Positions 14,836 to 63,334 of a stretch of 64,000 nt of DNA are shown one piece after another. Below the pieces are notes generated by a model. That model made no database searches. It worked only from the letters and a program-made list of their open reading frames with translations, and was not told the origin of the DNA. The stretch lies in the NCBI GenBank assembly GCA_964472315.1, contig CAYYJS010000007.1:14299-78298 (forward strand), written 5' to 3'. The translations under genes were made by a program, and so were the position numbers. Every line of letters begins with the position of its first letter. The stretch's first letter is position 1. Source of the stretch: an uncultured Victivallales bacterium. GTDB taxonomy: Bacteria; Verrucomicrobiota; Kiritimatiellia; UBA8416.

Positions 14836-14866
14836 CGTGTTTCCATCGGTAGGGAGTGCTAGAGAT

Positions 14867-17416: not shown

Positions 17417-17426
17417 GGAGCCACGT

Positions 17427-33912: not shown

Positions 33913-34053
33913 ATAATAGAGTTGACGTCCCGTGATGGGCCTGCCACACTTTTCGGATGCTTAGACCGGGCAGCCGTGTCAGGCACATGACGCGGCGCCG
34001 ACGGGCGGGCGCCCGGAGCTGTACGGATATTGACCCGGAACCGGAGGAAGGAC

Positions 34054-36216: not shown

Positions 36217-36227
36217 GAGAACAACCG

Positions 36228-38949: not shown

Positions 38950-38965
38950 GCATGCCTACACCAGG
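38940..38965. terminator. 26-nt near-perfect palindrome (CCTGGCGTAGGCA|TGCCTACACCAGG) between convergent REC gene and hypB: candidate bidirectional terminator
   Basis: Inverted repeat with one mismatch, centred between two converging stop codons 6 nt apart; no U-tract. Confidence 0.4.
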
Positions 38966-40117: not shown

Positions 40118-40119
40118 GG

Positions 40120-41139
40120 TCAGCAAATCCTCGGCAACAGTTCCCCGCGCGGCACATCGATCAGGCGGCGGCCGCCGGTCAGCGTGGTCATCGACACCCG
40201 GCCCGCCACATCGGTCACCCGGCCGATCGCGGCGGCGCGTCCGCCGTTCTCCATACCGCGCCAGCGGCGCACAATCTCATCCGAGACGTCGGGACCGCAA
40301 ACGAGCGCCAGGCGCCCTTCGCTGGCGACCTGCAGCGGATCGAGTCCGAGCATCTCGCTGACGCCGCGTACGCCCGCCGAGAGCGGTATCGCCGTTTCGT
40401 CGAGCTCGATGCCGACCGGTCGTCCGTCGACGAGCTCGTTCAACACCGCGGCGAGCCCGCCGCGCGTGGGGTCCCGCATGAAGCGGATCTCGCCCGCGAG
40501 ATCGGCCACCGCCAGGACAAGCTCGTGCACGGGCGCGCTATCGCTCAGGGGTCCGTTGGCGATATGGATGTCTTCGCGGGCCGCGAGCACGGCAAGCCCG
40601 TGTTCGGCGATCGTGCCGTTGATGAGCACGTGGTCGTCGGGCTTCAGCAGGTTGGCGCCGAGCCTGAATGCGGGTAGCAGTTCGCCGATACCGGCCGTGT
40701 TGACAAAGATGCCGTCGGCCTGTCCGCGCGCGACGACCTTCGTATCGCCCGTGACGATCTCGACGCCGCAGCGCTCGGCGGCGGCCTTTACGGCGTCTAG
40801 CACCCGCCGCAAGGCGGCCATCGGGAACCCCTCCTCCAGAATCAGGGATAGCGAGAGCCACCGCGGACGGCCGCCGGCGACGGCGATATCGTTGACCGTC
40901 CCGTGTACGGCGAGATCCCCGATGTTGCCGCCGGGGAACTCGTAAGGCGTTACGACGAAACTGTCCGTCGTGAAAACCAGGCCCCGACTGGGCAATGCCA
41001 GCGTCGCCGCGTCCGGCAAGCCCTGCAGCGCCTTGGCGCTGAAGCGCGACACGATTTCCGCATCGATGAAAGCGCGGGTCAGCCGTCCGCCGCCGCCATG
41101 CGCCAGTTGAATCGTCTCGTCCACGTCATCGCCTCGCAA
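40120..41139 (-). CDS. hypE: Hydrogenase maturation carbamoyl dehydratase HypE
   Basis: AIR-synthase-like fold; C-terminal PRIC motif typical of HypE. Confidence 0.85.
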   Translation of the reverse strand: MRGDDVDETIQLAHGGGGRLTRAFIDAEIVSRFSAKALQGLPDAATLALPSRGLVFTTDSFVVTPYEFPGGNIGDLAVHGTVNDIAVAGGRPRWLSLSLILEEGFPMAALRRVLDAVKAAAERCGVEIVTGDTKVVARGQADGIFVNTAGIGELLPAFRLGANLLKPDDHVLINGTIAEHGLAVLAAREDIHIANGPLSDSAPVHELVLAVADLAGEIRFMRDPTRGGLAAVLNELVDGRPVGIELDETAIPLSAGVRGVSEMLGLDPLQVASEGRLALVCGPDVSDEIVRRWRGMENGGRAAAIGRVTDVAGRVSMTTLTGGRRLIDVPRGELLPRIC

Positions 41140-41165
41140 ATCGCTTCATCCAACGCAACTTCTTA

Positions 41166-43412: not shown

Positions 43413-43516
43413 CGCCCGGGCCAGGCGATAGACCGACGGACGGAAGCCGACGCCCTGGACGGTGCCGGTCAGACTGTACGTGCGGCGGACAAGCAGCGTC
43501 GGTTGGGGTGCGGGCG

Positions 43517-43969
43517 TCAGCTTTGCACCTCCTTCAGCGCGACGGCGACATAGTCGGCGAACCGTGCTGCCACGGCCGCGGAAAGGCCGTCGCCCATGGT
43601 CATCGAAGCGGGCTGGATGGCCACGATGCGGATTGGCGGCACCGGCTGCCCGATCTGGCGCGCAAGCTGAACCAGCTTGAGCACGTCGCCCTCGTGCGTC
43701 GATATGGTCCCGACGACCTTGCGGGAGTCGACGTCCTCGGGGCCGAAGGCGATCCAGTCCCCCGGCTGCCCGCCGAAGTCGGCGGCATCGACGATGACGA
43801 CGCCGTCGGTCTCCGGCTCGAAATACGTCAGCACCTGCATGCCGTTGTTGCCGATCTCGACGGCCTCGAAACCGTCGTCAAGGTGGTTGTCGGCGATATG
43901 CTCGACGATGCGGAGCCCGATACCGTCATCGCCCATGGCGTAGTTACCGAGACCGAGCAGGTAGCGCAT
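43517..43969 (-). CDS. Hydrogenase maturation endopeptidase (HycI/HoxW/HybD family)
   Basis: MRYLLGLGNYAMGDDGIGLRIVE N-terminus and internal His-containing motif typical of [NiFe]-hydrogenase C-terminal proteases. Confidence 0.75.
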   Translation of the reverse strand: MRYLLGLGNYAMGDDGIGLRIVEHIADNHLDDGFEAVEIGNNGMQVLTYFEPETDGVVIVDAADFGGQPGDWIAFGPEDVDSRKVVGTISTHEGDVLKLVQLARQIGQPVPPIRIVAIQPASMTMGDGLSAAVAARFADYVAVALKEVQS

Positions 43970-44051: not shown

Positions 44052-45392
44052 TTACTTCTTGAACGTCACATCGAGGTAATGCGTGGAGCAGGAGATGCAG
44101 GGGTCGTAGGCACGGACCAGCATCTCGAGTCCCAGTTCCATCTCCTTTTCGGACTTGTTGGCCGCCACCAGTTCGGGGACGAGCGCGTTGAAGTCCTGTT
44201 GGATGTTGGCGTGATTCTGCCCGGTGGGAATGATGCAGTTGCCCATCGTGCAGAAACCGGCCGGATCGTAGGCGTACTCGTGGAACAGGATGCCACGCGG
44301 CACTTCCGTCGCGGCGGCGCCGCGTGCAAATCGCGTGGGCGTGGCCGGCTTCTCGTCCTTCAGTCCCTTTGTGAGCAGCACGTCGATGTACTCGACGGTC
44401 TTGAAGACGCTGTGGACGCATTCCACGAACTGCGCGATGCTGTTCATGTAGGGGTTGAAGCACAGGGGCTTCAGACCGAGCCCGACGGCCAACTTCCTGG
44501 CCTCGGGATGGAGTTGGTCGTGGCTGTTGTTGAAACGGGCCAGGGCGCCGGCCATGTAGCTGGCCATATTGTGCTTGGCGTACTTGGCCGTCGACTGGTC
44601 CACCACGTATTCGTTCGTCACGGAACGGTAGTCGGCGACGTCGATCAGTTCCTGAGCGCCGTCGGGCATCCGGCAGCCGATCTTGCCGTCATACAGGCCA
44701 TATTCCTTGTCGTCGACCAACGCGACGTACTCGGTCTGGCGCGTGAACGGTGGAATGCCGCCGGCGAGACTGAGCAGCGTCTTATAGGTTTCGACCGCAT
44801 CGGGTACGCAAGCCAGCAGCTTGTCCTTCAATTCGCGCAGGTTGGCTTCGGCCTCGCGCACGGTGCGGGCGCCGCCGGGCAGCGACGCGAAGCCGCCGAC
44901 GATCGCGCGGGTGGGGTGCGTGGTGCGTCCGCCGATGCAGCTTCCCCATTCGTGGCCGAGGCGCTTCATGCGCAGGGCGCGCTTGACGACCTCGCCGTGT
45001 GTCGGCACCAGCGGGAAGACCGAGGGCACACCCAGCAGATCGGGCGCTACGAGGAAGTAGACATGCAGGACATGCGAGTCGAAATTCTCGGCATGCTTGA
45101 GAATGCGCCGCAACAGGTCCGTCTGCTCCGAGATTTCGATGCCCAAGGCGGCCTCGGTCGCCTTCAGGGAGGCGAGGGTGTGGCCGACCGAACAGATGCC
45201 GCAGATGCGGCTCGTGATGCGCGCCACTTCGCTGTAGTGGCGTCCGCGCACCATCGCTTCGAAGAACCGCGGCGCCTCGGGCACCTGCCACTGGCAGGTC
45301 TCGACGGTGCCGTTGGTCACGTTGACCACGATGTTGCCGTGGCCTTCGACGCGCGTGAGATGATGGACATTGATCTTCGCGTTCTTTGTCAT
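44052..45392 (-). CDS. [NiFe]-hydrogenase large (alpha) subunit, group 3 (sulfhydrogenase/HydA-like)
   Basis: N-terminal RVEGHG, RICGICSVGH (L1 CxxC) and C-terminal DPCISCSTH (DPCxxCxxH) Ni-Fe-ligating motifs. Confidence 0.85.
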   Translation of the reverse strand: MTKNAKINVHHLTRVEGHGNIVVNVTNGTVETCQWQVPEAPRFFEAMVRGRHYSEVARITSRICGICSVGHTLASLKATEAALGIEISEQTDLLRRILKHAENFDSHVLHVYFLVAPDLLGVPSVFPLVPTHGEVVKRALRMKRLGHEWGSCIGGRTTHPTRAIVGGFASLPGGARTVREAEANLRELKDKLLACVPDAVETYKTLLSLAGGIPPFTRQTEYVALVDDKEYGLYDGKIGCRMPDGAQELIDVADYRSVTNEYVVDQSTAKYAKHNMASYMAGALARFNNSHDQLHPEARKLAVGLGLKPLCFNPYMNSIAQFVECVHSVFKTVEYIDVLLTKGLKDEKPATPTRFARGAAATEVPRGILFHEYAYDPAGFCTMGNCIIPTGQNHANIQQDFNALVPELVAANKSEKEMELGLEMLVRAYDPCISCSTHYLDVTFKK

Positions 45393-46141
45393 TATGCGTC
45401 ACCTCTGAAGTTGGCCGTGAACATGCGGGACTTGTTCCGGGCCCACGTTTCGGGCAGTTTGCCGTTCTCGATCAGCACCTTCTCCATCGATTCCTGGTTG
45501 GCGTTATCGACCATGCCTCGGCAGGCCTCGCAGGGAATCCCGTCGGCGGGGCAGGGCGCCCCGCAACCGGCGCGGGCGATGGGACCGAGACAATGGTCGC
45601 CGTCGTCATAGCGGCATACGGTGCCGCGCCGTTTGCATTCCATGCAGACGGGATAGGAGGGGATATAGACCTTCGCCGTCCCGTTGACGAGCTGGGTTAC
45701 GACGCGGATGAATTCGCCGCGATCCATCGGGCAGCCATGGACCTCGTAGTCGACTTTGATGGCCGCGGAGATCGGCAAGGCCTTCTTGGATGCCAGGTGC
45801 GGACGGTCCTTGTCGTCGCCGTAGACCTCATTGGCGTAGTCCGACGTATGGTTCTTCAGGGCGTTGATGCCTCCGCAGGTGGCGCAGGCGCCATAGGCGA
45901 CAACCACCTTTGCCCGGTTGCGAATCTCCTCCAGGCGCCGGCGGTCGGATTCGCGCGTAAACGACCCTTCGACGAAGGCCACATCGATGGGACCGGTCGT
46001 CTTCTCGGACATCGCTTCGCGGAACTCGACCGGTTCCACATTCTCCAGGAGTTGGACGAACGGCTCGCCGAAATTCGTCAGTTCAATCTGGCAACCTTCG
46101 CAACAGGCGAAGTCGAACCATGCACATTTTACCTTGGCCAT
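45392..46141 (-). CDS. [NiFe]-hydrogenase small (delta) subunit, group 3b-like
   Basis: Cys clusters FACCEGCQ, GACATCGG and CPM...C typical of the cytoplasmic small subunit. Confidence 0.8.
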   Translation of the reverse strand: MAKVKCAWFDFACCEGCQIELTNFGEPFVQLLENVEPVEFREAMSEKTTGPIDVAFVEGSFTRESDRRRLEEIRNRAKVVVAYGACATCGGINALKNHTSDYANEVYGDDKDRPHLASKKALPISAAIKVDYEVHGCPMDRGEFIRVVTQLVNGTAKVYIPSYPVCMECKRRGTVCRYDDGDHCLGPIARAGCGAPCPADGIPCEACRGMVDNANQESMEKVLIENGKLPETWARNKSRMFTANFRGDA

Positions 46142-46980
46142 TATATCGCCTCCTCAAGCGCTGCAATGTCGGAGAACCGGAAGACGGGGCCGTCCATACA
46201 GACGTACTTGTCGTTGATCTGGCAGTGACCGCATTTGCCGACACCGCACTTCATGCGACGTTCCAGGTCGACGTAGACGTTCGACCGCGGGATGCCGAGC
46301 TTGTCGATCTCGGCGATCACGAACTTGTACATGATCGGCGGACCGCAGATGATGACCCGCGTGTCGGGACCGATATCCCCGACCTTCGGGAACAGCGTGG
46401 TAATCACGCCGACGTTCCCTTCCCAGCCATGGGCGGGACGGTCGACGGTTTCAAGATAGCGCATGCAGGAGCTGCATCGCCACATCTCCAGGTCCTCCGC
46501 GAACAGCAGGTCGCTCGGGCTCTTGGCGCCGAAGAACAGCGTGAACTTGCCGAACTCGTCGCGCCGATCCAGGATATACTGGATCATGCTGCGCACGGGG
46601 CACAACCCGATGCCGCCGGCGACGATGAGGACGTCGTGGCCTCTGAACTCCTGCACCGGGAAGCCGTTGCCGAGCGGGCCGCGCACGGTCAGCGTATCGC
46701 CGACATTCTGCGATGCGATGGCGCTGGAGACCTTGCCGATGACGCGGACGACCAGATCGAAACGGTCTCCGCTGGTGGGCGAACTGGCCATGCCCAGCGG
46801 AATCTCGCCGTAGCCGAAGCGGCCGACTTCGACGATCTGGCCGGGTTGGTACTCGAACTTGCCGCCGTTCCGCAGCTTGAGTCGGAAGTGTTTCTCGGTG
46901 GCGGTGATCATGTCGGCTTTGACGATCTCCGCGACCTGCGGGAGAAAGATGTTCTCGTTGGTTGTATGACAGGCGGACAT
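46141..46980 (-). CDS. Sulfhydrogenase gamma-like subunit (FAD/NAD(P)-binding oxidoreductase with C-terminal [2Fe-2S]; AsrB/PyrK-like)
   Basis: Ferredoxin-reductase-type FAD/NAD folds plus C-terminal CGVGKCGHCQ cluster motif. Confidence 0.8.
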   Translation of the reverse strand: MSACHTTNENIFLPQVAEIVKADMITATEKHFRLKLRNGGKFEYQPGQIVEVGRFGYGEIPLGMASSPTSGDRFDLVVRVIGKVSSAIASQNVGDTLTVRGPLGNGFPVQEFRGHDVLIVAGGIGLCPVRSMIQYILDRRDEFGKFTLFFGAKSPSDLLFAEDLEMWRCSSCMRYLETVDRPAHGWEGNVGVITTLFPKVGDIGPDTRVIICGPPIMYKFVIAEIDKLGIPRSNVYVDLERRMKCGVGKCGHCQINDKYVCMDGPVFRFSDIAALEEAI

Positions 46981-46982
46981 GC

Positions 46983-48005
46983 TTACTGCTCCATGATCTT
47001 GTTGATGACAGTGGCGGGGTTCGCGATGTTGGCCGTGCAGGCACCCGAACAGCGGCCGCAGCCGGTGCAGGCCGGGCCGCCCAGCACGTCGTTAAGGTAG
47101 GCCGCTTTGCGCATGAACCGGTGGCGATAGCGCTCGCTGCGGTCCTCGCGGAAGTTCTCGGTGCCACCCATGGACGTGACCTCGGAGAACTCGCTCGTCA
47201 GGCAGGCATCCCACAGGCGGAAACGCGTGCCGGACTTGCCATCCACGTTCCATTCGTCCTGCACGTCGAAGCAGTAGCACGTCGGGCAGACGATGTTGCA
47301 GCTCCCGCAGGAGAAGCAATCCTTGGACAGTTCCTCCCAGACCGGCGAGGAAAAGGACCCGCGAACCTTCTCGCGGATTTCGTCGGCGGTTCCGTTCAGC
47401 TTCTCGGGGCAGTTGCGCTCGGCGTCGGCGTTGGCTTTGGCCGCGGCGGCGACTTGGCGGGTGGTGGCCGGCGTAAAGGTCCCGAGCGCGAGCAGGGACT
47501 CGCCGCGCGGCGTCAGCGTTTCGATCGCGTAACCGCCCGCGATGCGGGTCATGAACAGGTCATGGCCCGTGGCGGGTCGGCCGGCGTTCATCGTGCCGAA
47601 GAACGCGTGCTTGTAGTGGTTCTGGACGCTGGCGCCGATGACGATGGTGGCCTTGCGGTACGCCATGTAGTTGTTGTCGACCTTGCGGTCCTGGTAGAAG
47701 GTGTCCGACATGGCGATCCCCTTGATGTCATAGGGATGCACGCCGAGGAGCACCTGTTCCTTCGGGTCGAGACAGGCTCGGAAGCCGCTCGCATCGAAGG
47801 CGATCAGATCCTGTTTCGTCGGGAAGAACGCCTTCTTCGGCGGCAGGATGGTGGTGTCGTAGTCCAGTCGCAGATCATCCACGGTTTCGAGCCGCTCGAA
47901 TACGAAACGTGTTCGTTTGGCCACGGGCGCGATGACCGGATACTTGCCCATCAGGCCTTCCACGAACGCGGCAAGGTGCTGATCGCTCAGGAAATGTTGC
48001 TGCAT
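46983..48005 (-). CDS. Sulfhydrogenase beta-like subunit ([4Fe-4S] protein, AsrA-like)
   Basis: CFSCGSCNIVCPTCYC and CTGCGRCSGAC motifs. Start moved to MQQHF (48005) preceded by AAGGAT; the ATG at 48020 lacks an RBS. Confidence 0.75.
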   Translation of the reverse strand: MQQHFLSDQHLAAFVEGLMGKYPVIAPVAKRTRFVFERLETVDDLRLDYDTTILPPKKAFFPTKQDLIAFDASGFRACLDPKEQVLLGVHPYDIKGIAMSDTFYQDRKVDNNYMAYRKATIVIGASVQNHYKHAFFGTMNAGRPATGHDLFMTRIAGGYAIETLTPRGESLLALGTFTPATTRQVAAAAKANADAERNCPEKLNGTADEIREKVRGSFSSPVWEELSKDCFSCGSCNIVCPTCYCFDVQDEWNVDGKSGTRFRLWDACLTSEFSEVTSMGGTENFREDRSERYRHRFMRKAAYLNDVLGGPACTGCGRCSGACTANIANPATVINKIMEQ

Positions 48006-48025
48006 GCCATATCCTTTCATGTGCT

Positions 48026-48039
48026 GTTAAAAAATTAAC
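48026..48039. promoter_or_regulatory. Second copy of the GTTAAAAAATTAAC motif, in the 5' leader 21 nt upstream of the [NiFe]-hydrogenase operon start
   Basis: Identical 15-mer to the one at 33899..33913. Confidence 0.4.
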
Positions 48040-54076: not shown

Positions 54077-54168
54077 GGAGGGTTGGCAGAGCCCGGTTGA
54101 ATGCGCATGACTCGAAATCATGTGTGGCCGTAAGGCCACCGGGGGTTCAAATCCCTCACCCTCCGCCA
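54077..54168 (+). tRNA. tRNA-Ser (anticodon CGA), 92 nt with long variable arm
   Basis: Folds by eye: acceptor GGAGGGT/ACCCTCC, D-stem GCA/TGC, anticodon stem CATGA/TCATG with loop CTCGAAA, variable arm GTGGCC-GTAA-GGCCAC, T-arm GGGGG-TTCAAAT-CCCTC, discriminator G, encoded CCA. Confidence 0.85.
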
Positions 54169-54212
54169 TCCTTCGCCCCGCGGGCTTTGGCTGGCACGCC
54201 ATTTTGAAATTC

Positions 54213-54270
54213 GGCGATTCTTGCCCGCCGAAGCGCCTGGCGCGAAGGGGTCTTGCCACGATCAGACCAG
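54213..54270. repeat. Left copy of ~58-bp imperfect direct repeat flanking the tRNA-Ser island (putative att-like site)
   Basis: GGCGATTCTTGCCCGCCGAAGCGCCTGGCGCGAAGGGG...CCACGATCAGACCA matches 62018..62077 apart from one substitution and a short central indel. Confidence 0.5.
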
Positions 54271-54312
54271 AATCCCCGTCGCCAGAAGCAGGTTTGAAAA
54301 AGAAGCTTCCTG

Positions 54313-55533
54313 CTATGGCAGTTGCGCCAGAAACTCCGCGGCACCGGCCATAACAAGGGTGCGGCTGCCGGTCTGCACAACGCGCCACCCCGCACTTCCT
54401 GCACTCACTTGAATGGCTATGCCGCACGACAAGGATGGCAGGAATCGCCGCCAGTTTTGGGAGGGGGCCGCCTCTCCCAGCTTCGCCTCGACGGGAAGCC
54501 ACGGTTTGCCGTCGCGGGTAACGAGAAAATCGATCTCCATCCCCTCCTTGTTGCGCAGGTAATGCAATTCAAAGACGCCCTCACCCGAGTCCGTCCAGAG
54601 ATGGCAGGCCTTCAGTAGATGCAGCGCGACCAGATTCTCGAACCGAGCACCCGCCTCCGGCACTTCCGATGAATCCCACATATAGAACTTGCCTTCCTTG
54701 CGGATGGAGCGAGCAATGCTCGTGGTGTAGGGCTTGACCTCGAAGAGATAGTACAGTTCCTTGAGATAGGCCAACCAGCGTTTCACCGTCGGGTGTGATA
54801 CCTCCAGAAGATCGCGTAACGACGCCACGCTCAGAGGGCTTCCGACGCGTTCCGGCATCAGGGACGCGAGCATCTCCACCTGACTCAGTTCGGGAATGCG
54901 ACTCAGGTCGCGCAGGTCCTCGCGAATCACTCGTTCCAGCCTGTTGCGCCGCCAAAGACGAGCCTTGCGCTCGTCCTGAGCCAAGAAGGGCTCCGGGAAC
55001 GGACCATACCGCAACAGGGCTTCGAGGCTCGACTTCGTGGACTTTGTGGCCTCCGGCAAACCGCGAACCCATGCGGCCATGACCGCATCCGGCCGGGGTG
55101 CCGGGACCTCGCGCAACTCGCCCAGCGAGAAAGGATGGAGTCGGTAGTGATGGTATCGCCCGAGTAGACTGTCGCTGCCCTTGCGGTAAACATTGAGCCG
55201 GGCACTGCCCGTGACGAGGATATCGATGGGGTCGGTCAGTGTGTCATAGATCCCTTTCAGCGAGCTTTTCCACCCCTTGGCTTTGTGCAGCTCGTCAAAA
55301 ACGGCCATCGGCGGCGCGCCGACGGAGGGCACGGGGAGCGTTTGCTTGGGATCCTTGACCCACTGGCGACGGAAGGGAACGTCATCCCAGTTCCGGTACA
55401 CGCCATTCCGCTTCTTCAACATCATACGGGCCAGCGTCGTCTTCCCACATTGCCGTGGCCCGGACACAAAGGCCATCTTGTGGTCGGCAAACGTCAACGC
55501 CTCGATCACCGGCTCCAAGTATCTCGGTTTCAT
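54313..55533 (-). CDS. AAA-family ATPase with DUF4143-like C-terminal domain
   Basis: Walker A GPRQCGKTTLA; typical architecture of the ATPase/DUF4143 family. Confidence 0.65.
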   Translation of the reverse strand: MKPRYLEPVIEALTFADHKMAFVSGPRQCGKTTLARMMLKKRNGVYRNWDDVPFRRQWVKDPKQTLPVPSVGAPPMAVFDELHKAKGWKSSLKGIYDTLTDPIDILVTGSARLNVYRKGSDSLLGRYHHYRLHPFSLGELREVPAPRPDAVMAAWVRGLPEATKSTKSSLEALLRYGPFPEPFLAQDERKARLWRRNRLERVIREDLRDLSRIPELSQVEMLASLMPERVGSPLSVASLRDLLEVSHPTVKRWLAYLKELYYLFEVKPYTTSIARSIRKEGKFYMWDSSEVPEAGARFENLVALHLLKACHLWTDSGEGVFELHYLRNKEGMEIDFLVTRDGKPWLPVEAKLGEAAPSQNWRRFLPSLSCGIAIQVSAGSAGWRVVQTGSRTLVMAGAAEFLAQLP

Positions 55534-55975
55534 TTGCGACTATAGTGACGCCTGGCGTTAATCCAGTCAAGACTTGAAAGGCATCCCTTCGGACGGCTCT
55601 GCCCGACTTGCCGATCCGGGGCGACGGCGTTTCGTCGTCGGTCTTGCGCTGGTCGCTCGCTTCCCTTGCTCCGAATGGCCTCCCGCCGTCTTTCCGCCAG
55701 CTTCACCGACACCCGCCGCAGGCGGGGCAGTCGGTCGTCGTCAGCCACGAGCGACGTCGAATGGCCTCCCGGCGGCTCTCGATCCCGGAGGTCCCGAATC
55801 CGGGCGCGCGTCTTCACTTCCTCTGGTTCCGTATGTCTGCATGCCGTGAAGCCCTTCGATAAGACTCAGGACACGGCCGGTTGCGGCCCGGACACGCCGG
55901 AGCCTCCGGCTCTGGCGTGGAAGGGGCGCAACCGGCGGAGCGGCGAGAAGTCACCAAGTGGCGTTCAGCCACTTG

Positions 55976-56980
55976 TCATGCCTTCGAGTCTTTTGGGCGA
56001 AGGTCTCTCACCACGCGCGGTGCGTGCTCAGTCTGGATCCCGTATTGCTCAGAGAGAACCGCCGCTATGTCGGCCGGTGTGACTTCTTTCCGTGCAGTGC
56101 CCGATGTCAGCGCGGAAACCTTCACGAAGGTTGCCGCACTTTCGATGAGGTCAACGATCCGATCCGGCATCGCGCGTTCCTCCGGCATCTCACTGGTCGC
56201 CCTGACGATGGCGGCAACGGCTGCCGGTTCAAAGGTGATTCCCTGCGCAGCCGCGATCTCTTTCGCCCAAGCGTCCGCGAGATCGCAGCACTCCTCCTGT
56301 GACGGGTCAGCAAGTTGAACCACATGGAAACGCCGCACCAGCGATGGGGCCTTGTCCGCCAACTCTTTCCACATGGCGGGCGCAGTTGTGACGATACACG
56401 GCGTCACTTGCTCGGCCAGGACAGTTGTCAGAAGCGCGAAAATGGCATCGGACTTCAGGTGGGCCGGAAAGAGCCCGTTGAAATCGTCCAGCACAAGAAT
56501 GGCCGACCGTCGTCGACTGAGTAAGCGGAACAGGTGCGAGAGACGCCGACAGACTTCCGCCGCGCCTTCGCAGTCCGACGCAATATCGCTTCCGTGAAGC
56601 TCCAGGAGTTCGCAGTCGGTCAAAGAATGAGGAGTCTTCCTTCGCAGAAGTGTCGTTGCGAGACCCTCCACCAGTGCCGTTTTACCCACTCCTGGTTTTC
56701 CGACAACCGCAATGTGTCGCGTCCCTGTCCGGGCGAGAAAACGAAGCATCTTCCGCAATTCGCCTTCTCGCCCCTCAAACGGCGCGAGTTTTCCCTCGTG
56801 CGCCAGGCGCGAGAGATTTCGACCAAACCATTCCGCGAAACGGCCGCCCGGTTTGGCGTGTCCGTCTTCGAGAATCTCCCACTTGGCCCCTTTGGAACTG
56901 GGCCGCGCGTGTGGTCGCTTGAGACTCTCCAGACTCACGCATCCCGCGCAAGACGGCAATCTCGGCATGCGCGATGCCAA
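55976..56980 (-). CDS. Single-domain Clp-like AAA+ ATPase (ClpA/ClpB D1-like)
   Basis: GREGELRKMLRFLARTGTRHIAVVGKPGVGKTALVEGLATTLL resembles the ClpA/B AAA-1 module (GRDEEI...LIGEPGVGKTAIVEGLA); Walker B ILVLDDF. Confidence 0.55.
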   Translation of the reverse strand: MASRMPRLPSCAGCVSLESLKRPHARPSSKGAKWEILEDGHAKPGGRFAEWFGRNLSRLAHEGKLAPFEGREGELRKMLRFLARTGTRHIAVVGKPGVGKTALVEGLATTLLRRKTPHSLTDCELLELHGSDIASDCEGAAEVCRRLSHLFRLLSRRRSAILVLDDFNGLFPAHLKSDAIFALLTTVLAEQVTPCIVTTAPAMWKELADKAPSLVRRFHVVQLADPSQEECCDLADAWAKEIAAAQGITFEPAAVAAIVRATSEMPEERAMPDRIVDLIESAATFVKVSALTSGTARKEVTPADIAAVLSEQYGIQTEHAPRVVRDLRPKDSKA

Positions 56981-57272
56981 GATGAATGCCGAAGTCTATG
57001 GTGGTGCGGGCTGACATGGGCGTTCATTGGTTGCCGGAAACTACGTCCGTTTGCGCCGCGGGCCAGACTCCCTCACGGCCATTGGGGTCGGCGTCGCTTC
57101 CAAATAGGAGCGACCGACTTCGCTCCAGAATCGCTGCGACGCCTCGTGAAAGTAGACGAGCAGACGATCTGCGGATAGACCGCGAGTCTCCCGCGCGATG
57201 CGCGCCTGCGCCCGATCCTTCATCTCGATGCACCGAAACCCTGCCGTCTTCGGAAACCGCTCCCAGAATGCT

Positions 57273-57770
57273 TCATTCATCGAAACTCACCTCCTTCGGG
57301 CTGACAATCGTCAAAACGCCGTAGCCGTTGAGCAGGTTCACCTGATTGTACCCTTTGATCTTATCCAGTTTAACAATGTGCCGGAAGTTCCATGATACGA
57401 TGGCATCCGCCCGGGCCACGGTCGCCGCCGCCACATGCCGGCAATCGTCCAGCCACGCTTCCGGCACGACGCCGCGCGCCACATACTCGCGCGCCAGCGA
57501 CTCGACTTCGGAAGTAAAGGCGACTCGCTCGCGGTGTACGTCCGGCAGATCGCTGAAAAGCTGCCGGACCAGCTCCGGCGCGTCGAGCAACTCCGCTTCC
57601 AGCACTTCCGTGAAGAGCAAACGCGCCTTGCCGTCCAGCACGGCGGCAATGACACGCCGCGAGTCGGCCGCGAACTCGTCGTCAAAACAGCCGCCGATCA
57701 CGGACGTGTCCAGATACAGCCGCCAGGGATTGCCTGGAAGCCTCGTTGACTGGGCAACCTTACGCTTCAT
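57273..57770 (-). CDS. PIN-domain protein (VapC-like putative toxin)
   Basis: Acidic residues in PIN positions: YLDTSVI, TEVLEAEL, LDDCRHVAAATVARADAIVSWNFRHI. Confidence 0.5.
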   Translation of the reverse strand: MKRKVAQSTRLPGNPWRLYLDTSVIGGCFDDEFAADSRRVIAAVLDGKARLLFTEVLEAELLDAPELVRQLFSDLPDVHRERVAFTSEVESLAREYVARGVVPEAWLDDCRHVAAATVARADAIVSWNFRHIVKLDKIKGYNQVNLLNGYGVLTIVSPKEVSFDE

Positions 57771-58062
57771 AGATCAGTCTCCCTTCGCGTGCGACGGTAG
57801 CGGGCAGGGATGTCACGACCGCCAATCCCTTCTCAAACTCCCGCCGCGTGAAAACGAGCACATCCTTTGCGATTCCCATGCCGCACAACGCGCGGAATGC
57901 CTGCTGCTCCCGCTTGTGGCGCGGCAGCGGCGAATCTCGAACGACGACAAGGAAGTCGAAGTCGCTCTGCTCCGTGGCCTCGCCGCGGGCGCGGGAACCG
58001 AAAAGGTAGATACGTTCTGCGGGCATACTGCCGCGCAAGCGGCGCGGAACAATGCTGTGCAT
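57760..58062 (-). CDS. Nucleotidyltransferase (Pol-beta/MNT superfamily) domain protein, overlapping the PIN gene
   Basis: LFGSRARGEATEQSDFDFLVVV (GS-x9-DxD) nucleotidyltransferase motif; 11-nt overlap with the downstream PIN gene. Confidence 0.6.
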   Translation of the reverse strand: MHSIVPRRLRGSMPAERIYLFGSRARGEATEQSDFDFLVVVRDSPLPRHKREQQAFRALCGMGIAKDVLVFTRREFEKGLAVVTSLPATVAREGRLIYEA

Positions 58063-58120
58063 GAAAAGCGAGTCTCACCGGCGATTCTAGGCATATTGTC
58101 GTCATATTGCTTCCTTGTTT

Positions 58121-59905
58121 CTATTCCGCGTTCTCTGTGGAGAGTTCAGCTTGTCGTAACACGAGTTGTGTTGCGTCTTCGGCGAGATCGGGCGGATAGC
58201 CGTACTTGGCCAGCAGGCGGCGGACGTTGCGACGCAGACTTGCCCGAACCGATTCGCGCTGGGTCCAGTCGAGTTTAGGCATGCGGCGTACCATCTCCGT
58301 GAGTTCACGCGCCATGAGGCGCAGGGCGTCTATCTGCATGATCTCGCGGGCAGAACCGTTTTCTGCCAAAGCATCGTAGAATGCGGTTTCCTCGCTGGTC
58401 AGTCCGAGTTCTTCGCCGTGCTTCTGCGCGTCCCGCAGGGTCTTTGCCAGATCAATCAGCCGCGTGATCATCTCGGCGGTGGCCCCCTTCTCGCGGGCAG
58501 ACCGCTTCCGGGGCGACGAATCCGCTTGAAGGAACAGGATGTATTCATTCTGCACGTCCACGGCGATGGTTTTGCCCTTCGTAATGACGGAAAGGTCATC
58601 AGGCGACAACTTGACGACATCGCCGCCCCAGCGGCGGCCGAAGGGTGTGTCGGCACCGTCGGTGGCATCGAAAGGCGCGGGCACGATGTGGATCTGTTCC
58701 GCACGGTAGCGGGCACGGGATTCGCGGCATTCGGATGCGCCGCCGCCTTGCGTAGCAGCGGCTTCAGTTTTGCCGGAAAGATCGCCCAGTTCGGCCTCGA
58801 GCTCCTCGACGGTCGGGAGGTTGCCTTTGAGTTCGGTCGGTAGATCTTCGGTGAGCTGCTTCTTCCAATCGGCCACACCGATCGGGCGGTTGAACCCGCT
58901 GAGCGCATATTCCGCGATGATACGATCCTTGCCCTTGCACAGTAGCAGGCCAATGGTGGGTTTGTCGTCAACGTGCCGCAGCAGGTCATCCACGGCGGAC
59001 ATGTACATATTGAGCTTGCCGACGAACTCCGGTGCGAACGGGACCGCCTTGAGTTCTACCACCACATAACAGCGCAGCTTGAGATGGTAGAACAGGAGGT
59101 CGAGGTAGTAATCGGCGCTGGAGAATTCGAGATGCACCTGGCGTCCGACGAAGGCAAACCCCGCGCCGAGTTCAAGCAGGAATTTCTGCACGTGATCCAC
59201 CAGCGCCTGTTCGACCTCCCGCTCGCGGCGGGGATCGGCGGTGCCGATGAAGTCGAACAGGTAAGGGTCCTTGAATATCTGCGCGGCCATGTCGGAGTCG
59301 GCGGGCGGCAGCGCAGCGGCGAAGTTGTGGACGGCTTTGCCCTGACGCTTATGCAGGTTGTTCTCGATCTGCAAAGCGAGGATGTTCCGCGACCAGCCGT
59401 TTTCAACGGTTTTGGCTGCGTACCAGAGCCGTTTATCTCGTGCCTTGAGCTTCTCGATCAAGGCCAGATTGTGGTACCAGGTGATTTGTGCAAGCGACGC
59501 TTGCACAATTGCGCGATCTGGCCAGGCCTCCGAGAATTTCCGCATGTATTTGAGGTTGCGCGCCGATAACCCCCGCATGTCAGGAAAGGCCTCGCGCAGG
59601 TCGGCGGAGAGCCTGTCAATGACCTTGGCGCCCCAGCCTTCGCGCTCCTGCCTCTGGAGAATGACCTGCCCGATATCCCAATAGAGCAACGTCATGGCCG
59701 CATTGGCGGAAAGCACCACACGCAGACGTTCGGTGCGAATCCGTTCTTTGAGGTCGTTCAATGTGGACGCATATCCGCCCGGAAGCGCCACATGAGAAGG
59801 CGGCACCGGGAAGGCCGCGCCCTCCCGGGCTCGACCGCGCGCCAAGCGGGATAGTGCTGCTCCGTCGGTGGCAGGCGTCTCCGCCGCTTTGCGTTTAGCT
59901 GCCAT
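58121..59905 (-). CDS. Fusion of a DUF1016 (YhcG-like PD-(D/E)xK nuclease) N-terminal region with a type I restriction HsdR C-terminal (DUF3387-like) domain
   Basis: N-terminal LKERIRTERLRVVLSANAAMTLLYWDIG and ELKAVPFAPEFVGKLNMY PD-(D/E)xK region. C-terminal ETAFYDAL...LTEMVRRMPKLDWTQRESVRASLRRNVRRLLAKYGYPPD matches the conserved HsdR C-terminal helical domain. ATG overlaps the hsdM end. Confidence 0.6.
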   Translation of the reverse strand: MAAKRKAAETPATDGAALSRLARGRAREGAAFPVPPSHVALPGGYASTLNDLKERIRTERLRVVLSANAAMTLLYWDIGQVILQRQEREGWGAKVIDRLSADLREAFPDMRGLSARNLKYMRKFSEAWPDRAIVQASLAQITWYHNLALIEKLKARDKRLWYAAKTVENGWSRNILALQIENNLHKRQGKAVHNFAAALPPADSDMAAQIFKDPYLFDFIGTADPRREREVEQALVDHVQKFLLELGAGFAFVGRQVHLEFSSADYYLDLLFYHLKLRCYVVVELKAVPFAPEFVGKLNMYMSAVDDLLRHVDDKPTIGLLLCKGKDRIIAEYALSGFNRPIGVADWKKQLTEDLPTELKGNLPTVEELEAELGDLSGKTEAAATQGGGASECRESRARYRAEQIHIVPAPFDATDGADTPFGRRWGGDVVKLSPDDLSVITKGKTIAVDVQNEYILFLQADSSPRKRSAREKGATAEMITRLIDLAKTLRDAQKHGEELGLTSEETAFYDALAENGSAREIMQIDALRLMARELTEMVRRMPKLDWTQRESVRASLRRNVRRLLAKYGYPPDLAEDATQLVLRQAELSTENAE

Positions 59906-61571
59906 TGCGCAACCCTTCAAGCCGCGCGCGCACGACTCCCATCAACCGTTCGCCCTCGCCGAAGCACGCCTCCAACTTCGCCAGCAGACGCGGATACTGC
60001 TCCGCGAAGGGCTCGGCGTCCTCTTCCTGCGCCTCCGCGCCGACGTACCGGCCGGGAGTGAGCACAAAGCCGTGCTTCTTGATCCCTTCGATCTTCTCCG
60101 CCTTGCAGAAACCGGGGATGTCGCGGTACTCCCATATGCCATGCTGCGCCTCGTCCCACCAATCCGGCGCGGGTTCCCCGCGCCATTGGCGGAAGGCGTA
60201 GACCATACGGCCGATGTCGGAGTCCGGTTTCGGGTCGCCCAACCCATCGGCCAGCATGGACTCGCCGTCATCGCCGCCGGTAAGCACGCGCAGAATGCGG
60301 GTTTGCATCGTTCCGAGTTTGCGGGCGTCCAGAAAAAGCATCTCGCCACTGCGATCCCGTCCGCCGTGCTTGAGATTCTTTCCCGTCTTGTTGCGGGTGA
60401 GGAACCAGAGGCAGGCGGGAATGCCTGTGGTGAGGAATAGTTGGGACGGCAATGCTATGACTGCATCCACGAGATCCGCCTCGACGATGCGCTGGCGGAT
60501 GTTGCCCTCAGCACCCCCCGCGGAGAGCGAGCCATTGGCCATGACAAACCCGGCCACACCGCCGCCTCGCCCGTTGGGCGTCGCGAGATGGTGGATGAAG
60601 TGTTGTATCCAGGCGAAGTTGGCGTTGCCAGTGGGCGGCGTGCCGTACTGCCATCGCACGTCGTCGGCCAGCAGTTTTCCGGACCAGTCGGAGATGTTGA
60701 ACGGCGGATTGGCAAGGATGTAGTCAGCGCGCAAGTCGGGATGAAGGTTGCGCAGAAACGTGTCCGCCGGTTGCGAACCGAGATTGGCCTCGATGCCGCG
60801 GATGGCGAGGTTCATGTGCGCCAGCCGCCAGGTGGTGGGATTGGATTCCTGCCCGAAGATGGAAATATCGGTCTTCTGTCCGCCGTGGGCTTCGACGAAG
60901 CGTTCAGACTGGATGAACATGCCCGCCGAACCGCAGCATGGGTCATAGACCCGGCCCTCGTAGGGTTCAAGCATCTCGACCAGCAGTCGCACGATACAGC
61001 GCGGCGTAAAAAACTCGCCGCCGAGTTTGCCTTCAGCCTGGGCGAATTTGCCGAGGAAATATTCGTAGACCCGTCCCAGCGTGTCACGGGCCTTCGCGCG
61101 GTCGCCCTTGAAACCGATGTTGGCGATCAGGTCAATCAGCCCCTTCATCTTTTCGGGCGCAATGCCCCGGCGAGCGTAGTCGCGTGGGAGTTTGCTCTTG
61201 AGGTTCGGATTGTCGCGCTCGACGGCAAGGATGGCGTCGTCGATGAGGGTTGCGATCTCGGGCCGCGCGGCCTGATTCTGGAGATTGGCCCAGCGTGCCT
61301 CAGGCGGCACCCAGAAGACCCGTTCGGCGGTGTACTCGTCACGGTTCTCGAGGAGGCTTTCGATCTGCGGGCCGGCAATGCCGTCGGCTTCCAGTTCCGC
61401 CCGGAGTTCCACGCGTCGCGCCTCGAACGAATCGGAGATGTATTTGAGGAAGAGCAGGCCGAGGACGACATGCTTGTACTCGGCGGCGTCGATCTGGCCG
61501 CGCAGGGCGTCGGCCGATTTCCAGAGGATCTCGGCGCTCGCCAAGTCCGAGTTGTTTCCATTGTCTGCCAT
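59895..61571 (-). CDS. hsdM: Type I restriction-modification N6-adenine DNA methyltransferase subunit HsdM
   Basis: RBS AAGGAGA; HsdM N-terminal domain (LWKSADALRG...); motif I (VYDPCCGSAGMFIQ) and motif IV NPPF. No hsdS or hsdR nearby. Confidence 0.85.
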   Translation of the reverse strand: MADNGNNSDLASAEILWKSADALRGQIDAAEYKHVVLGLLFLKYISDSFEARRVELRAELEADGIAGPQIESLLENRDEYTAERVFWVPPEARWANLQNQAARPEIATLIDDAILAVERDNPNLKSKLPRDYARRGIAPEKMKGLIDLIANIGFKGDRAKARDTLGRVYEYFLGKFAQAEGKLGGEFFTPRCIVRLLVEMLEPYEGRVYDPCCGSAGMFIQSERFVEAHGGQKTDISIFGQESNPTTWRLAHMNLAIRGIEANLGSQPADTFLRNLHPDLRADYILANPPFNISDWSGKLLADDVRWQYGTPPTGNANFAWIQHFIHHLATPNGRGGGVAGFVMANGSLSAGGAEGNIRQRIVEADLVDAVIALPSQLFLTTGIPACLWFLTRNKTGKNLKHGGRDRSGEMLFLDARKLGTMQTRILRVLTGGDDGESMLADGLGDPKPDSDIGRMVYAFRQWRGEPAPDWWDEAQHGIWEYRDIPGFCKAEKIEGIKKHGFVLTPGRYVGAEAQEEDAEPFAEQYPRLLAKLEACFGEGERLMGVVRARLEGLRNGS

Positions 61572-61572
61572 A

Positions 61573-61779
61573 TCAGAAGTCTCCTTGCGTATGGCTACTC
61601 TTCTGGGCGGCCTTTCCTGAGTCCACCCACTTGTCGACCTCACTCAGTTTGATCTTCCACAGTCTACCGACCTTCCGGGCGGGCATGCCCTTGCGCTCGA
61701 TCCAAACATAGACCGTTTCCCGTTTGATGCCCAAGTGCTCAGCCACTTCTTCAACCGAGGACCACGGCTCTCTCTTCAT
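61573..61779 (-). CDS. Small HTH DNA-binding protein of the excisionase/AlpA-like family
   Basis: EVAEHLGIKRETVYVWIERKGMPARKVGRLWKIKLSEVDKWV, a typical Xis/MerR-like wHTH. Confidence 0.5.
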   Translation of the reverse strand: MKREPWSSVEEVAEHLGIKRETVYVWIERKGMPARKVGRLWKIKLSEVDKWVDSGKAAQKSSHTQGDF

Positions 61780-62017
61780 AGTCAATTCCCCTGGCGTTGC
61801 CGCATTGGCACGGAATGCACTCATATGTATCCCGTTACACAGGGAAAGACAAGGATGACCTCAATTCGTGACAGTGCTGCCCCGGAACCGCCGTCGCGCG
61901 CACCGCGTGAGGGGGCGCAAGAGCGGATACCGCTTTGACGGCCTGGAATACGGGAACCCTTCGGCAAGCTCAGGGCAGGCAAGCGCGCTCAGCCTTGGAG
62001 GGCGCGACGGCGGACGC

Positions 62018-62077
62018 GGCGATTCTTGCCCACCGAAGCGCCTGGCGCGAAGGGGGATTCAGCCACGATCAGACCAC
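62018..62077. repeat. Right copy of the ~58-bp imperfect direct repeat bounding the island
   Basis: See 54213..54270. Confidence 0.5.
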
Positions 62078-63334
62078 GGGGCCGGGAACCGGACATGCAA
62101 GACGGGATCGGTCTTCCGGTCGTTCGTCTTGTCCGTAGCATGCGAACCAGATGGTTCCGGCCAATCCGAAGCCGGAGGCGATGAGGAAGTTTGTCGCCGG
62201 TCCGATCTGCCATAGAAACGCGCCACCAAAGGCGGCCACCGAGACGACGACGTCTCGCATCAGGTAGTACAGCCCGAACATGGCGGCCTTCCGTCCTTCG
62301 GGCGCCAGGTCCATGATCAGGGCCTTGCGCGTCGGTTCGCCAAACTCCTTCAGGCCTCTCAGCACGAAAGCCGCGACCAGCGGCCAGAACGACTGGCAGT
62401 GGATCAGGGCCAGCGGGAACAACGTGAAGAACACGAACGTCAGCAAGACGAACGGCTTTTTCGTGGTCCGGTCCGCCAGCCACGCCACGGGGATGTAGAC
62501 GAGGACCGCCGTAACCATCTCGACGCTGGTGAGCACGCCAAATTCGAAGGCCGAAACCGGCGATGCCACGCGCTTCATGGCCCAGACCACCACGAAGGCA
62601 TACGGTATCTGCTCGCAGAATCGCACCAGAATGTCCGAGACCAGAAGGCGGCGCAGCGCCGGCGACATCTCGCGGAACAGCCGCATCGGATTCCGTTCCG
62701 CCGACGGTTCGTCACCTTCATCCGGCGCATGCGCGGGGATCAGGCGCTGTTGCAGGACCAGGGCGACAACCGCCAGCGCCAGGGCGCCGACAAACGCCAC
62801 GCGCACGCCGGCGGTCTCGCCCCACCGGTTGATGAATAGGCCGCCGACCAGCGGCCCCAACGCCATCGGGATACGGCGCACCAGCGAATGCATGGAGACG
62901 CCCATCGTCCGTTTGTTCTTCGGCAGGACGCGCGATACCAGGTCCATGGTCGCCGGCAGCGAAATCGCGGTCCAGGAGAGGAAGAAGAACGAGCCGCCGA
63001 TCACCGCCGGCCATGCGGGGATCAGGATCACGATCAGGAATCCGACCATGGCCAGGAGATTGAAGACCAGAAGCGCCCGCTTGGTGCCGAGGCGATCCGA
63101 AAGGTAGCCGCCCGGGAACGAGTACAGCGCCGAGAGGAGGTTGTCGAGACCGTTCAACAGACCGACCGATAGCACGCCCCCGCCGAGGGCCATCAGGTAG
63201 ATCGGCAGGAAGCGTTCGGCCATCCGCTCGCCCATGCCGACGAGGATGACCATGCCGAGCAGCCCCGCGATGCCACGGTTGAGCCCGAGGAAGGCCAGCG
63301 CCGTGTAAGCGGAACGACAGGATGCGGGTTTCAT
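62069..63334 (-). CDS. MFS-family transporter (12 TM)
   Basis: Hydrophobic 12-TM profile; start at MKPASCRS (63334); the upstream ORF part is P/S/T-rich low complexity. Confidence 0.7.
   Translation of the reverse strand: MKPASCRSAYTALAFLGLNRGIAGLLGMVILVGMGERMAERFLPIYLMALGGGVLSVGLLNGLDNLLSALYSFPGGYLSDRLGTKRALLVFNLLAMVGFLIVILIPAWPAVIGGSFFFLSWTAISLPATMDLVSRVLPKNKRTMGVSMHSLVRRIPMALGPLVGGLFINRWGETAGVRVAFVGALALAVVALVLQQRLIPAHAPDEGDEPSAERNPMRLFREMSPALRRLLVSDILVRFCEQIPYAFVVVWAMKRVASPVSAFEFGVLTSVEMVTAVLVYIPVAWLADRTTKKPFVLLTFVFFTLFPLALIHCQSFWPLVAAFVLRGLKEFGEPTRKALIMDLAPEGRKAAMFGLYYLMRDVVVSVAAFGGAFLWQIGPATNFLIASGFGLAGTIWFACYGQDERPEDRSRLACPVPGPVV

Follow-up and report, generated by a model that had tools for sequence, protein, structure and literature searches.

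The stretch analysed here (the window) comprises 64,000 nucleotides of contig CAYYJS010000007.1 from an uncultured Victivallales bacterium. It contains a block of defence-type genes, hereafter the islet, that lies between the single tRNA gene of the window and a gene for a major facilitator superfamily (MFS) transporter, and that is bracketed by two imperfect copies of a direct repeat of 58 to 60 nt. The tRNA was identified as tRNA-Ser(CGA) on the plus strand (ARAGORN; Rfam tRNA, 54.4 bits), and the MFS gene is convergent with it. An earlier note on this DNA, made from the sequence alone, had described the flanks as housekeeping, and profile matches and gene tables agree, the left side having glutathione peroxidase and the right side MFS, PhoU and the pst operon. 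Over 28 kb, the left flank carries genes for hydrogenases, Hyp maturation proteins, MnmA, EamA, elongation factor P (EF-P), a Ser/Thr kinase and glutathione peroxidase. On the right, the MFS gene is the last after pstSCAB-phoU (gene table of Logan contig L084), so that the right flank reads MFS, PhoU, pst operon. From left to right, the features of the site, including open reading frames (ORFs), are:

54077..54168, plus strand: tRNA-Ser(CGA), intact, with CCA end (ARAGORN, Rfam); left landmark of the insertion site
54170..54250, no strand: imperfect hairpin of ~80 nt directly after the tRNA, its 3' arm being the first 39 nt of the left repeat
54212..54269, plus strand: left direct repeat, 58 nt, candidate attL; holds a non-coding copy of the last 8 nt plus stop codon of the MFS gene
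54313..55533, minus strand: AAA_14 plus DUF4143 ATPase, 406 aa (Pfam 1e-24 and 1e-23; PADLOC candidate PDC-S01, 2.6e-55)
55534..55975, no strand: gene-less gap of 440 nt, no protein-family match in any frame
55976..56968, minus strand: stand-alone AAA+ ATPase, 330 aa (Pfam AAA/AAA_16/nSTAND1; gene call from Logan contig L001)
57041..57280, minus strand: 79-aa ORF without a family match, overlapping the upstream PIN-like gene by 8 nt
57273..57770, minus strand: PIN-like protein, 165 aa (PIN_3 E=5e-4, below the Pfam cutoff), overlapping the nucleotidyltransferase (NTase) gene by 11 nt
57760..58062, minus strand: MNT-type minimal NTase, 100 aa (NTP_transf_2 4e-10; PDC-S09 2e-11)
58052..58120, minus strand: recombination scar, comprising intergenic DNA and the opening ~18 codons (ATG at 58105) of the S-adenosylmethionine (SAM)-dependent methyltransferase gene located after hsdR in the relative L097
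58121..59905, minus strand: chimeric ORF, 594 aa (Pfam DUF1016_N, YhcG_C and T1RH-like_C; the YhcG part is PDC-S02)
59895..61571, minus strand: hsdM, 558 aa (N6_Mtase 9e-95, HsdM_N; PADLOC MTase_I 3.6e-166)
61573..61779, minus strand: HTH_17 protein, 68 aa (Pfam HTH_17 5e-15)
61780..62016, minus strand: non-coding leader of ~240 nt of the HTH/restriction-modification cassette (blastn, 82.6% to the related loci L097 and L098)
62017..62076, plus strand: right direct repeat, 60 nt, candidate attR; extends over the final codons of the MFS gene and its stop codon (62069-62071)
62069..63334, minus strand: MFS transporter, 421 aa (MFS_1 2e-35; exact protein P0001), right host flank

All genes of the islet are on the minus strand and, in line with the earlier note, which had called the cargo accessory, the genes between the repeats are of an accessory, defence type (Pfam, PADLOC).

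The repeat copies are 91.5% identical (58 against 60 nt) and bracket 7,747 nt. Each consists of a 39-nt block with a single G/A mismatch (54212-54250 and 62017-62055), a variable stretch that reads TCTTG (5 nt) on the left and GATTCAG (7 nt) on the right, and an exact 14-mer, CCACGATCAGACCA, at 54256-54269 and 62063-62076. Sequence comparison within the window bears out the earlier description of a real, imperfect direct repeat with two copies flanking the islet. The ends then assigned to it (54213..54270 and 62018..62077) do not hold, as identity stops one base earlier (54270 is G and 62077 is C). Within the window, the 38-mer with at most three mismatches was matched exactly twice, which happened in none of 100 shuffles. 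The similarity does not extend beyond the repeats in either direction. The left copy begins 44 nt downstream of tRNA-Ser(CGA), in agreement with the earlier statement that the repeats do not overlap the tRNA.

Two observations bear on the origin of the repeat. The right copy covers the stop codon of the MFS gene and the equivalent bases of the left copy are non-coding, so the repeat is duplicated host sequence. Moreover, the left copy is engaged in the hairpin that directly follows the tRNA. The reverse complement of 54169-54212 scores 24 against the left repeat, compared with 12.6+/-2.3 for shuffles (4 of 2000 reach this value), the DNA fold of the hairpin has a free energy of -23.1 kcal/mol (z=-2.1), and, as read from the sequence, the variable G of the left copy is a base that pairs in the hairpin. 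Inverted-repeat scoring found no hairpin partner for the right copy. Pairing with the DNA that follows the tRNA is thus limited to the left copy, which accordingly seems to stand in the original spacer context, and the hairpin is probably the original structure of the tRNA/MFS spacer. With 58 nt, the duplication is far too long for a target-site duplication made by a transposase. Judged from their letters, both copies may be derived from one sequence that contains GATTCTTGCC twice, by substitution and small indels; such a derivation would fit either an old event or heterology between attP and attB. We also asked whether a degenerate tRNA 3' end precedes the right repeat (ACCCTTCGGCA vs ACCCTCCGCCA); the score was below the shuffle mean and the idea was rejected. 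The same applies to a structured RNA in the repeats or the leader: the tRNA is the only Rfam match above noise, with sX4 and plastid matches far below their gathering scores, and the repeats folded alone do no better than shuffles.

That the left copy forms an arm of a long imperfect palindrome is typical of repetitive extragenic elements, and would suit the idea that the 58-bp sequence is a dispersed intergenic repeat of the REP, BIME or RIME kind, unrelated to the arrival of the genes. However, no further copy, not even a degenerate one, was found by blastn-short or with an nhmmer profile of both copies in ~72 kb of this genome (the window together with Logan contigs L084 and L103). Public collections were scanned for exact matches to the 23-mer core of the repeat. 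There were none in the 185,579 species representatives of GTDB or in IMG/VR, and a lone match in the JGI metagenomes was dismissed as chance, lying inside a coding region with unrelated flanks. In addition, the right copy lacks a palindrome partner and overlaps a stop codon, and the two copies stand in the same orientation exactly at the edges of a compositionally foreign block. We therefore regard a dispersed repeat as highly unlikely.

The segment between the repeats is foreign by composition. Its GC content is 61.3%, against 65.4% for the rest of the window, the mean GC content at third codon positions of its genes is 0.729 against 0.808 (Mann-Whitney p=2.5e-6), and its tetranucleotide distance from the window average is reached by only one of 113 windows of the same size. 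The skew in GC and codon usage that the earlier note had proposed to look for is thus present. The right-hand limit of the foreign DNA can be placed independently of composition: homology to the independent cassette of L097 and L098 (82.6%, blastn) spans the HTH gene and its 240-nt leader and ends at 62018-62021, within 4-9 nt of the inner edge of the right repeat. Because the homology ends at this edge, the edge is a real junction between foreign and host DNA. Both junctions of the islet recur in independent per-run assemblies (Logan contigs L001-L003 for the left and L084 for the right), so the arrangement is not a mis-join of the metagenome-assembled genome (MAG). As to these assemblies themselves, the per-run contigs break within the glutathione peroxidase gene (53404) and within the tRNA (~54095); position 1 of contig L103 (Logan SRR12261225_11006) corresponds to window position 53404. 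Glutathione peroxidase gene, tRNA and islet are bridged by no single Logan contig, for which coverage or a k-mer common to other tRNA-Ser genes are candidate explanations.

Part of the cargo is the remnant of a type I restriction-modification (R-M) operon. HsdM is full-length and intact, being 89% identical over its whole length to the HsdM of a related locus, L093, and retaining the NPPF motif. It is followed by the chimeric ORF, which joins a YhcG/DUF1016 PD-(D/E)xK nuclease, in frame, to the C-terminal 119 residues of HsdR. Residues 6-483 of the chimera are 82% identical to the entire 479-aa protein P0122, and residues 481-599 are 98% identical to residues 917-1035 (of 1035) of the HsdR encoded on the same contig as P0122, L093. 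The earlier note had spoken of an orphan hsdM with a nuclease fusion; in fact hsdM is a separate, intact gene, and the fusion is the adjacent ORF at 58121-59905. At the DNA level, window positions 61589-58500 correspond to L093 937-4029 and positions 58482-58117 to L093 8768-9133, so that ~4.7 kb is missing by comparison with L093, namely hsdS, a 225-aa gene and codons 1-916 of hsdR. The deletion junction, at ~58482-58500, is in frame and is spanned by the independent Logan contig L001. Across the module as a whole, identity to L093 and L097 is 85-92%. The intact layout, hsdM-yhcG-hsdS-X-hsdR, is found in the relatives L093 and L096, and L097 was also counted as having an intact layout. Among the best 120 of 8,000 scored homologues, PF11867, which corresponds to the HsdR C-terminus, occurs only in the window's own ORF; the other listed homologues are DUF1016+YhcG proteins, nearly all of 350-490 aa. 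On these comparisons, the YhcG::HsdR-tail fusion is the scar of the ~4.7-kb deletion.

What remains of the operon is short of two subunits. No Methylase_S ORF was found in the islet, and there is no room for hsdS between hsdM and the next ORF: hsdM and the chimera overlap by 11 nt (26 nt by raw ORF coordinates), and in the relatives hsdS follows yhcG. Of a functional HsdR, only the equivalent of residues 917-1035 is left, fused to YhcG. Since HsdS is needed for both methylation and restriction by type I enzymes (PMC11411939) and hsdS has been deleted, the system would be non-functional, able neither to methylate nor to restrict, unless hsdS is supplied from elsewhere.

A second scar lies at the other end of the R-M remnant. 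Window positions 58052-58482 match L097 10372-9942 (89.8%, blastn), and this homology runs 69 nt past the hsdR stop codon into a methyltransferase gene before stopping at 58052, where the NTase gene starts.

One intact relative of the R-M operon deserves description in its own right. In L096 (7202-20519; JGI Ga0194125_10000412) the gene order is HTH_17, DUF4062/HATPase_c_4, hsdM, yhcG, hsdS, Abi_C, an OLD/TOPRIM ATPase, a UvrD helicase and hsdR. The OLD/TOPRIM and UvrD genes form a Gabija-like pair, giving three extra defence modules nested in one type I operon, and no flanking repeats or integrase were seen there.

The gene at the head of the R-M remnant encodes a 68-aa HTH_17 protein, which the earlier note had taken as excisionase-like. 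The evidence does not favour this. The stop codon of the HTH gene is 1 nt from the hsdM ATG, and the AAGGAG motif of hsdM lies within the 3' end of the HTH gene, so that the two genes are closely linked. Members of its own cluster head R-M and other defence operons. An HTH of the same 90%-identity cluster is the first gene of L097, where it is followed by HATPase_c_3, hsdM, hsdS, Abi_C and hsdR, and an HTH_17 protein of the same family heads the type I operon of L096. The best NCBIfam match is MAD1 (60 bits; cutoff 80), with excise alongside at 58.7 bits. Immediately upstream of the HTH start, ~80 nt (61780-61860; TCATCCTTGTCTTTCCCTGTGT..GATACATAT) are near-invariant in five unrelated contigs (L097-L101), and are likely, to judge from this conservation, to hold the promoter/operator of HTH-led defence operons. 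Rather than an excisionase, the HTH_17 gene encodes the leader of the R-M operon and its presumed regulator, and it lends no support to mobility. Small repressors heading type I R-M islands have a precedent in RptR (PMC12255303).

Membership of the methylation-associated defence system MADS was also considered, and rejected: MAD1 remains below its cutoff, MAD2 scores 46.9 bits against a cutoff of 720, and no other mad gene was found, the only match being a weak mad8-like P-loop one. An HTH of the same 90% cluster additionally heads a different operon in JGI 3300072015 (contig byk59pqU, genes 1571-11768), with the order HTH, a 265-aa gene, PIN, a 1027-aa N6_Mtase/Eco57I protein, a DEAD/SWI2-SNF2 helicase, DUF932 and HARE-HTH/Mrr_cat. 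This operon is a MADS- or BREX-like methylation-based system.

The remaining cargo contains the two AAA-type ATPases (Pfam) and the nucleotidyltransferase and PIN pair reported previously, the pair consisting of the MNT-type NTase and the 165-aa PIN-like protein, for which PIN_3 is a sub-cutoff match. The AAA_14-DUF4143 gene has a history separate from that of the R-M module. It is 86.7% identical at the DNA level to a locus from another study, L102, over 55571..54317 only, that is, over the gene and 38 nt upstream of it; the homology ends at the stop codon and the neighbours in L102 are different. It is a self-contained single-gene cassette. The stand-alone AAA+ ATPase resembles the D1 ring of ClpA/ClpB/ClpC (NCBIfam ClpA 2e-35, profile positions 157-437; ClpC1 and ClpB structures in the PDB, 2e-29). 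The PIN-like protein shows the LDTSV...E...D pattern of acidic residues that is typical of PIN, and has no match in the PDB or PADLOC. Although the NTase is MntA-like, it scores 34.9 bits against an MntA cutoff of 60, and its partner is PIN-like, not HEPN; assignment to an MNT-HEPN (type VII) toxin-antitoxin system was therefore rejected. The NTase/PIN/AAA+ block as a whole had no match among the loci fetched for comparison. That the AAA_14 gene is shared with L102 as a gene alone and the R-M module with L093 and L097, together with the scar of the lost methyltransferase gene, establishes a mosaic origin for the islet.

Immediately downstream of the AAA+ gene, the gene-less gap between the two ATPase genes holds an imperfect 61-nt palindrome (55876-55904/55908-55936, 83% complementary). 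The gap further contains a direct repeat of 23 nt (55672 and 55758, 86 nt apart). It could represent a terminator plus a decayed cassette boundary. The presence of same-strand cassettes with a palindrome between them suggested an integron or a cluster of attC sites without an integrase (CALIN). This was set aside, as the ends of the palindrome at 55876-55936, judged by eye, differ from the attC R'/R'' consensus and no IntI is present. A scan of the islet for sigma-70 promoters and terminators gave counts equal to the shuffle expectation.

We next consider how the islet came to lie between the repeats. No integrase, Resolvase or Recombinase match was found in the islet ORFs, in alternative frames or in the gap, and the flanks are free of an integrase over 28 kb on the left and 10 kb on the right. 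This upholds the earlier statement that no integrase or recombinase lies between the repeats (Pfam, all frames, PHROGs). The gap of 440 nt and the other reading frames gave no Pfam match at E<=1, so that a pseudogenised integrase there was rejected. The sole tyrosine recombinase in the window is XerC/XerD-like (17343-18401, plus strand; 308 bits, cutoff 335). It lies 36 kb away and follows dprA (13450-14835) and topA (14795-17416) in the classic dprA-topA-xer neighbourhood, and is presumably a housekeeping gene unrelated to the islet. An origin as a phage, satellite or plasmid was likewise rejected, PHROGs giving no structural, replication or integrase match; DNA-level matches to plasmids and phages are confined to hsdM and yhcG. 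Thus, of the suggestion that this is a degraded or satellite integrative element, the first half stands, on account of the ~4.7-kb deletion, and nothing points to the second, there being no phage, relaxase or replication genes.

The Xer-like gene raises the possibility of an integrative mobile element exploiting Xer (IMEX), that is, an integrase-less element integrated by the host XerC/D at a dif-like site. IMEXs lack an integrase of their own and are flanked by direct repeats. Here, however, the repeats have no dif-like architecture and at 58 nt are twice the length of the 28-bp dif site, and the site lies beside a tRNA and is not a recognisable chromosome dimer-resolution site. With no dif-like motif in or near the repeats we reject this explanation, which is scarcely credible. 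Far from the islet, the window has a single weak dif-like match (33906-33926, minus strand; GTCAACTCTATTATGTTAATT), with three mismatches; three of 100 shuffles did equally well. It lies in an AT-rich region upstream of a hydrogenase operon and is unconvincing as a dif site.

An unoccupied form of the site was sought through the MFS flank. None of 80 loci from GTDB representatives, nor any of the three contexts of the closest proteins, has a tRNA-Ser downstream or shows synteny. The closest relatives by protein (85% identity for the MFS transporter and 60% for the kinase) are non-syntenic around the site; that with the 60%-identical kinase keeps the kinase, EF-P, EamA and MnmA, and diverges on the tRNA side. 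The exact MFS protein is present in the source contig and in one Logan contig only (L084, from SRR12261224), which carries the occupied state.

Taken together, we consider it reasonably probable (about 0.6) that this is an old, integrase-less and decaying defence islet, resembling a cis-mobilisable element (CIME), which was inserted into the spacer between the tRNA-Ser and MFS genes with duplication of ~58 bp. In the scenario that we favour, ~7.75 kb of horizontally acquired defence-type DNA would have entered the ~100-nt spacer between tRNA-Ser(CGA) and the MFS gene, duplicating ~58 bp of the spacer including the MFS stop codon. A circular element could have integrated by a single crossover, either site-specific or of Campbell type, leaving one attL-like and one attR-like repeat, and its recombinase would since have been lost, or would always have been supplied in trans. 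Decay would have followed, with the repeat copies drifting to about 92% identity and the ~4.7-kb deletion leaving the orphan HsdM and the in-frame YhcG::HsdR-tail chimera. The other cargo is patched together from cassettes that circulate independently, one being the AAA_14-DUF4143 gene and the other the operon that encodes the MNT-type NTase, the PIN-like protein, the 79-aa ORF and the Clp-D1-like AAA+ ATPase. Of this account, the duplication, the foreign composition, the mosaic origin, the deletion and the lack of an integrase are shown; we infer recombinase-mediated integration as the source of the repeats, and the present immobility of the islet.

Several observations weigh against this reading. 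The repeat begins 44 nt downstream of the tRNA and does not include its 3' end, which most tRNA-targeting integrases would duplicate. No remnant of an integrase, relaxase or replication gene, even as a pseudogene, was found in the islet (Pfam, gap frames, PHROGs). The 5/7-nt replacement in the middle of the copies means that there is no clean att core. No related integrase-bearing element with the same repeat turned up in GTDB representatives, JGI metagenomes or IMG/VR when searched with the exact 23-mer. Finally, among related R-M islands flanking repeats were seen neither in L096 nor in L097, the latter over the 11.5 kb at hand.

The position of the repeat clear of the tRNA, the lack of an integrase remnant and the absence of a flanking repeat from L097 would also be expected if the repeats had never been att sites and the duplication were the by-product of illegitimate or homology-assisted recombination at a tRNA-adjacent hotspot. 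An ectopic crossover with donor DNA carrying the same spacer would be a possible route. Other junctions in the islet that are not site-specific (58052, 58482-58500, 55571 and 54317) indicate that patchwork recombination is frequent here. Those illegitimate joins, however, show at most a few bases of microhomology, whereas the target duplication is clean, sharp-edged and 58-60 nt long, as expected of a single crossover of a circle, and the L097 homology stops at the edge of the repeat. This explanation is the likeliest of the rivals, and we nonetheless hold it to be unlikely; it is followed in order of likelihood by a trans-mobilisable islet, a dispersed repeat and an IMEX.

If the islet were still mobile, the repeats would be functional attL and attR sites served by an integrase elsewhere or by a helper element, making it a true CIME or a satellite. 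Direct repeats are kept at both ends, next to a tRNA, and they share a fully identical 23-nt core whose palindrome, GCGCC-T-GGCGC, could, as read from the sequence, be a crossover or binding site; moreover, CIMEs that keep their att sites are a documented class (PMC5704250). On the other hand, no integrase other than the housekeeping XerC/D-like gene lies within 54 kb upstream or 10 kb downstream, the repeats have diverged and carry an indel or replacement in the middle, and the cargo is visibly decaying. The sole Logan contig with a complete MFS gene (L084) is occupied and no empty-site variant was found, and public collections hold no other copy of the repeat by exact 23-mer. We judge continued mobility to be quite improbable.

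Docking of HsdR onto the methyltransferase core of HsdM and HsdS is ascribed to its C-terminal helical domain. In the chimera, the HsdR tail could thus tether the PD-(D/E)xK nuclease to the intact HsdM. That the chimera is a working neo-subunit, or that the 58-bp repeats are live att sites for a trans-acting integrase, or both, strikes us as very unlikely. Were the former true, the locus would encode a motor-less restriction/defence module under a MAD1-like HTH leader; were the repeats live, it would be a mobilisable defence cassette in PVC-group bacteria.

The islet can be compared with known systems. Like genomic islands placed next to a tRNA by tyrosine recombinases (P4-type integrase islands), it lies 3' of the tRNA, is flanked by direct repeats, is atypical in composition and carries accessory defence cargo. 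Unlike them, it has neither an integrase gene nor an integrase pseudogene, its repeat excludes the tRNA 3' end, and the copies are about 92% identical. CIMEs are elements that keep their att sites after losing the genes for integration and transfer (PMC5704250), and the islet matches them in being bounded by att-like direct repeats, in having no recombination or transfer genes and in its internal decay. It differs in bearing no trace of ancestry from an integrative and conjugative or an integrative and mobilisable element (no relaxase, coupling protein or conjugation remnants). Its att sites are candidates only, the repeats being present but diverged, and its helper is hypothetical. CIMEs have been described mainly in Firmicutes, whereas the islet is in a PVC-group (Lentisphaerota/Verrucomicrobiota-like) MAG.

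As regards the cargo, type I R-M systems with embedded defence genes are exemplified by TgvAB on V. cholerae VPI-2 (PMC11411939) and by the PADLOC candidates PDC-S01, PDC-S02 and PDC-S09. The islet is similar in that hsdM is followed by an overlapping YhcG/DUF1016 gene, as in L093, L096 and plasmids of Polaromonas, Arthrobacter and Deinococcus, and in that AAA_14-DUF4143 and MNT-type NTase genes lie near its hsdM. It is dissimilar in lacking hsdS and in having HsdR cut to 119 C-terminal residues fused to YhcG. The 68-aa HTH protein shares with MAD1, RptR (PMC12255303) and the C-proteins of type II systems its place as first gene, its link to a methyltransferase and a conserved leader. It differs from the MAD1 of MADS in falling below the cutoff, the other MADS genes being absent, and from RptR in its fold; its regulatory role is inferred.

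Every component of the islet is thus of a known kind, and it is not a new kind of mobile element. Only two features are noteworthy, the YhcG::HsdR-tail chimera, which has no counterpart among the inspected homologues, and the MAD1-like HTH leader, which recurs. The locus opens no new question. It is a clear case of the decay of a defence islet, in which one in-frame deletion produced an orphan methyltransferase and a chimeric ORF, and of the way in which such islets are built from independently circulating cassettes. For annotation, it is instructive that an "excisionase-family" HTH_17 gene beside a tRNA and direct repeats mimics a hallmark of mobile elements and, at this locus and several related ones, leads methylation-based defence operons instead. 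Active att sites in the repeats would place the islet among the few CIME-like elements documented outside Firmicutes.

Elsewhere in the window, a 291-aa ORF (12791-13666, minus strand) is unusual in its similarity to the signalling domain at the N-terminus of Hedgehog (PF01085, E=1.7e-10, profile positions 52-161). The product is probably a bacterial zinc hydrolase of the Hedgehog N-terminal/DD-peptidase-like kind. The window also holds two hydrogenase systems. The first (33991-38473, plus strand) is a NuoF-like/[FeFe]-hydrogenase/NuoE-like trio, arranged as in an electron-bifurcating enzyme. The second (44052-48026 with 38956-43877, both on the minus strand) is of the [NiFe] type; its cluster of four genes includes FAD/NAD and Fe-S subunits and precedes maturation genes for HypF, HypE-like and HypB-like proteins. 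Together, the two hydrogenase systems point to an anaerobic, fermentative PVC-group organism as the host.

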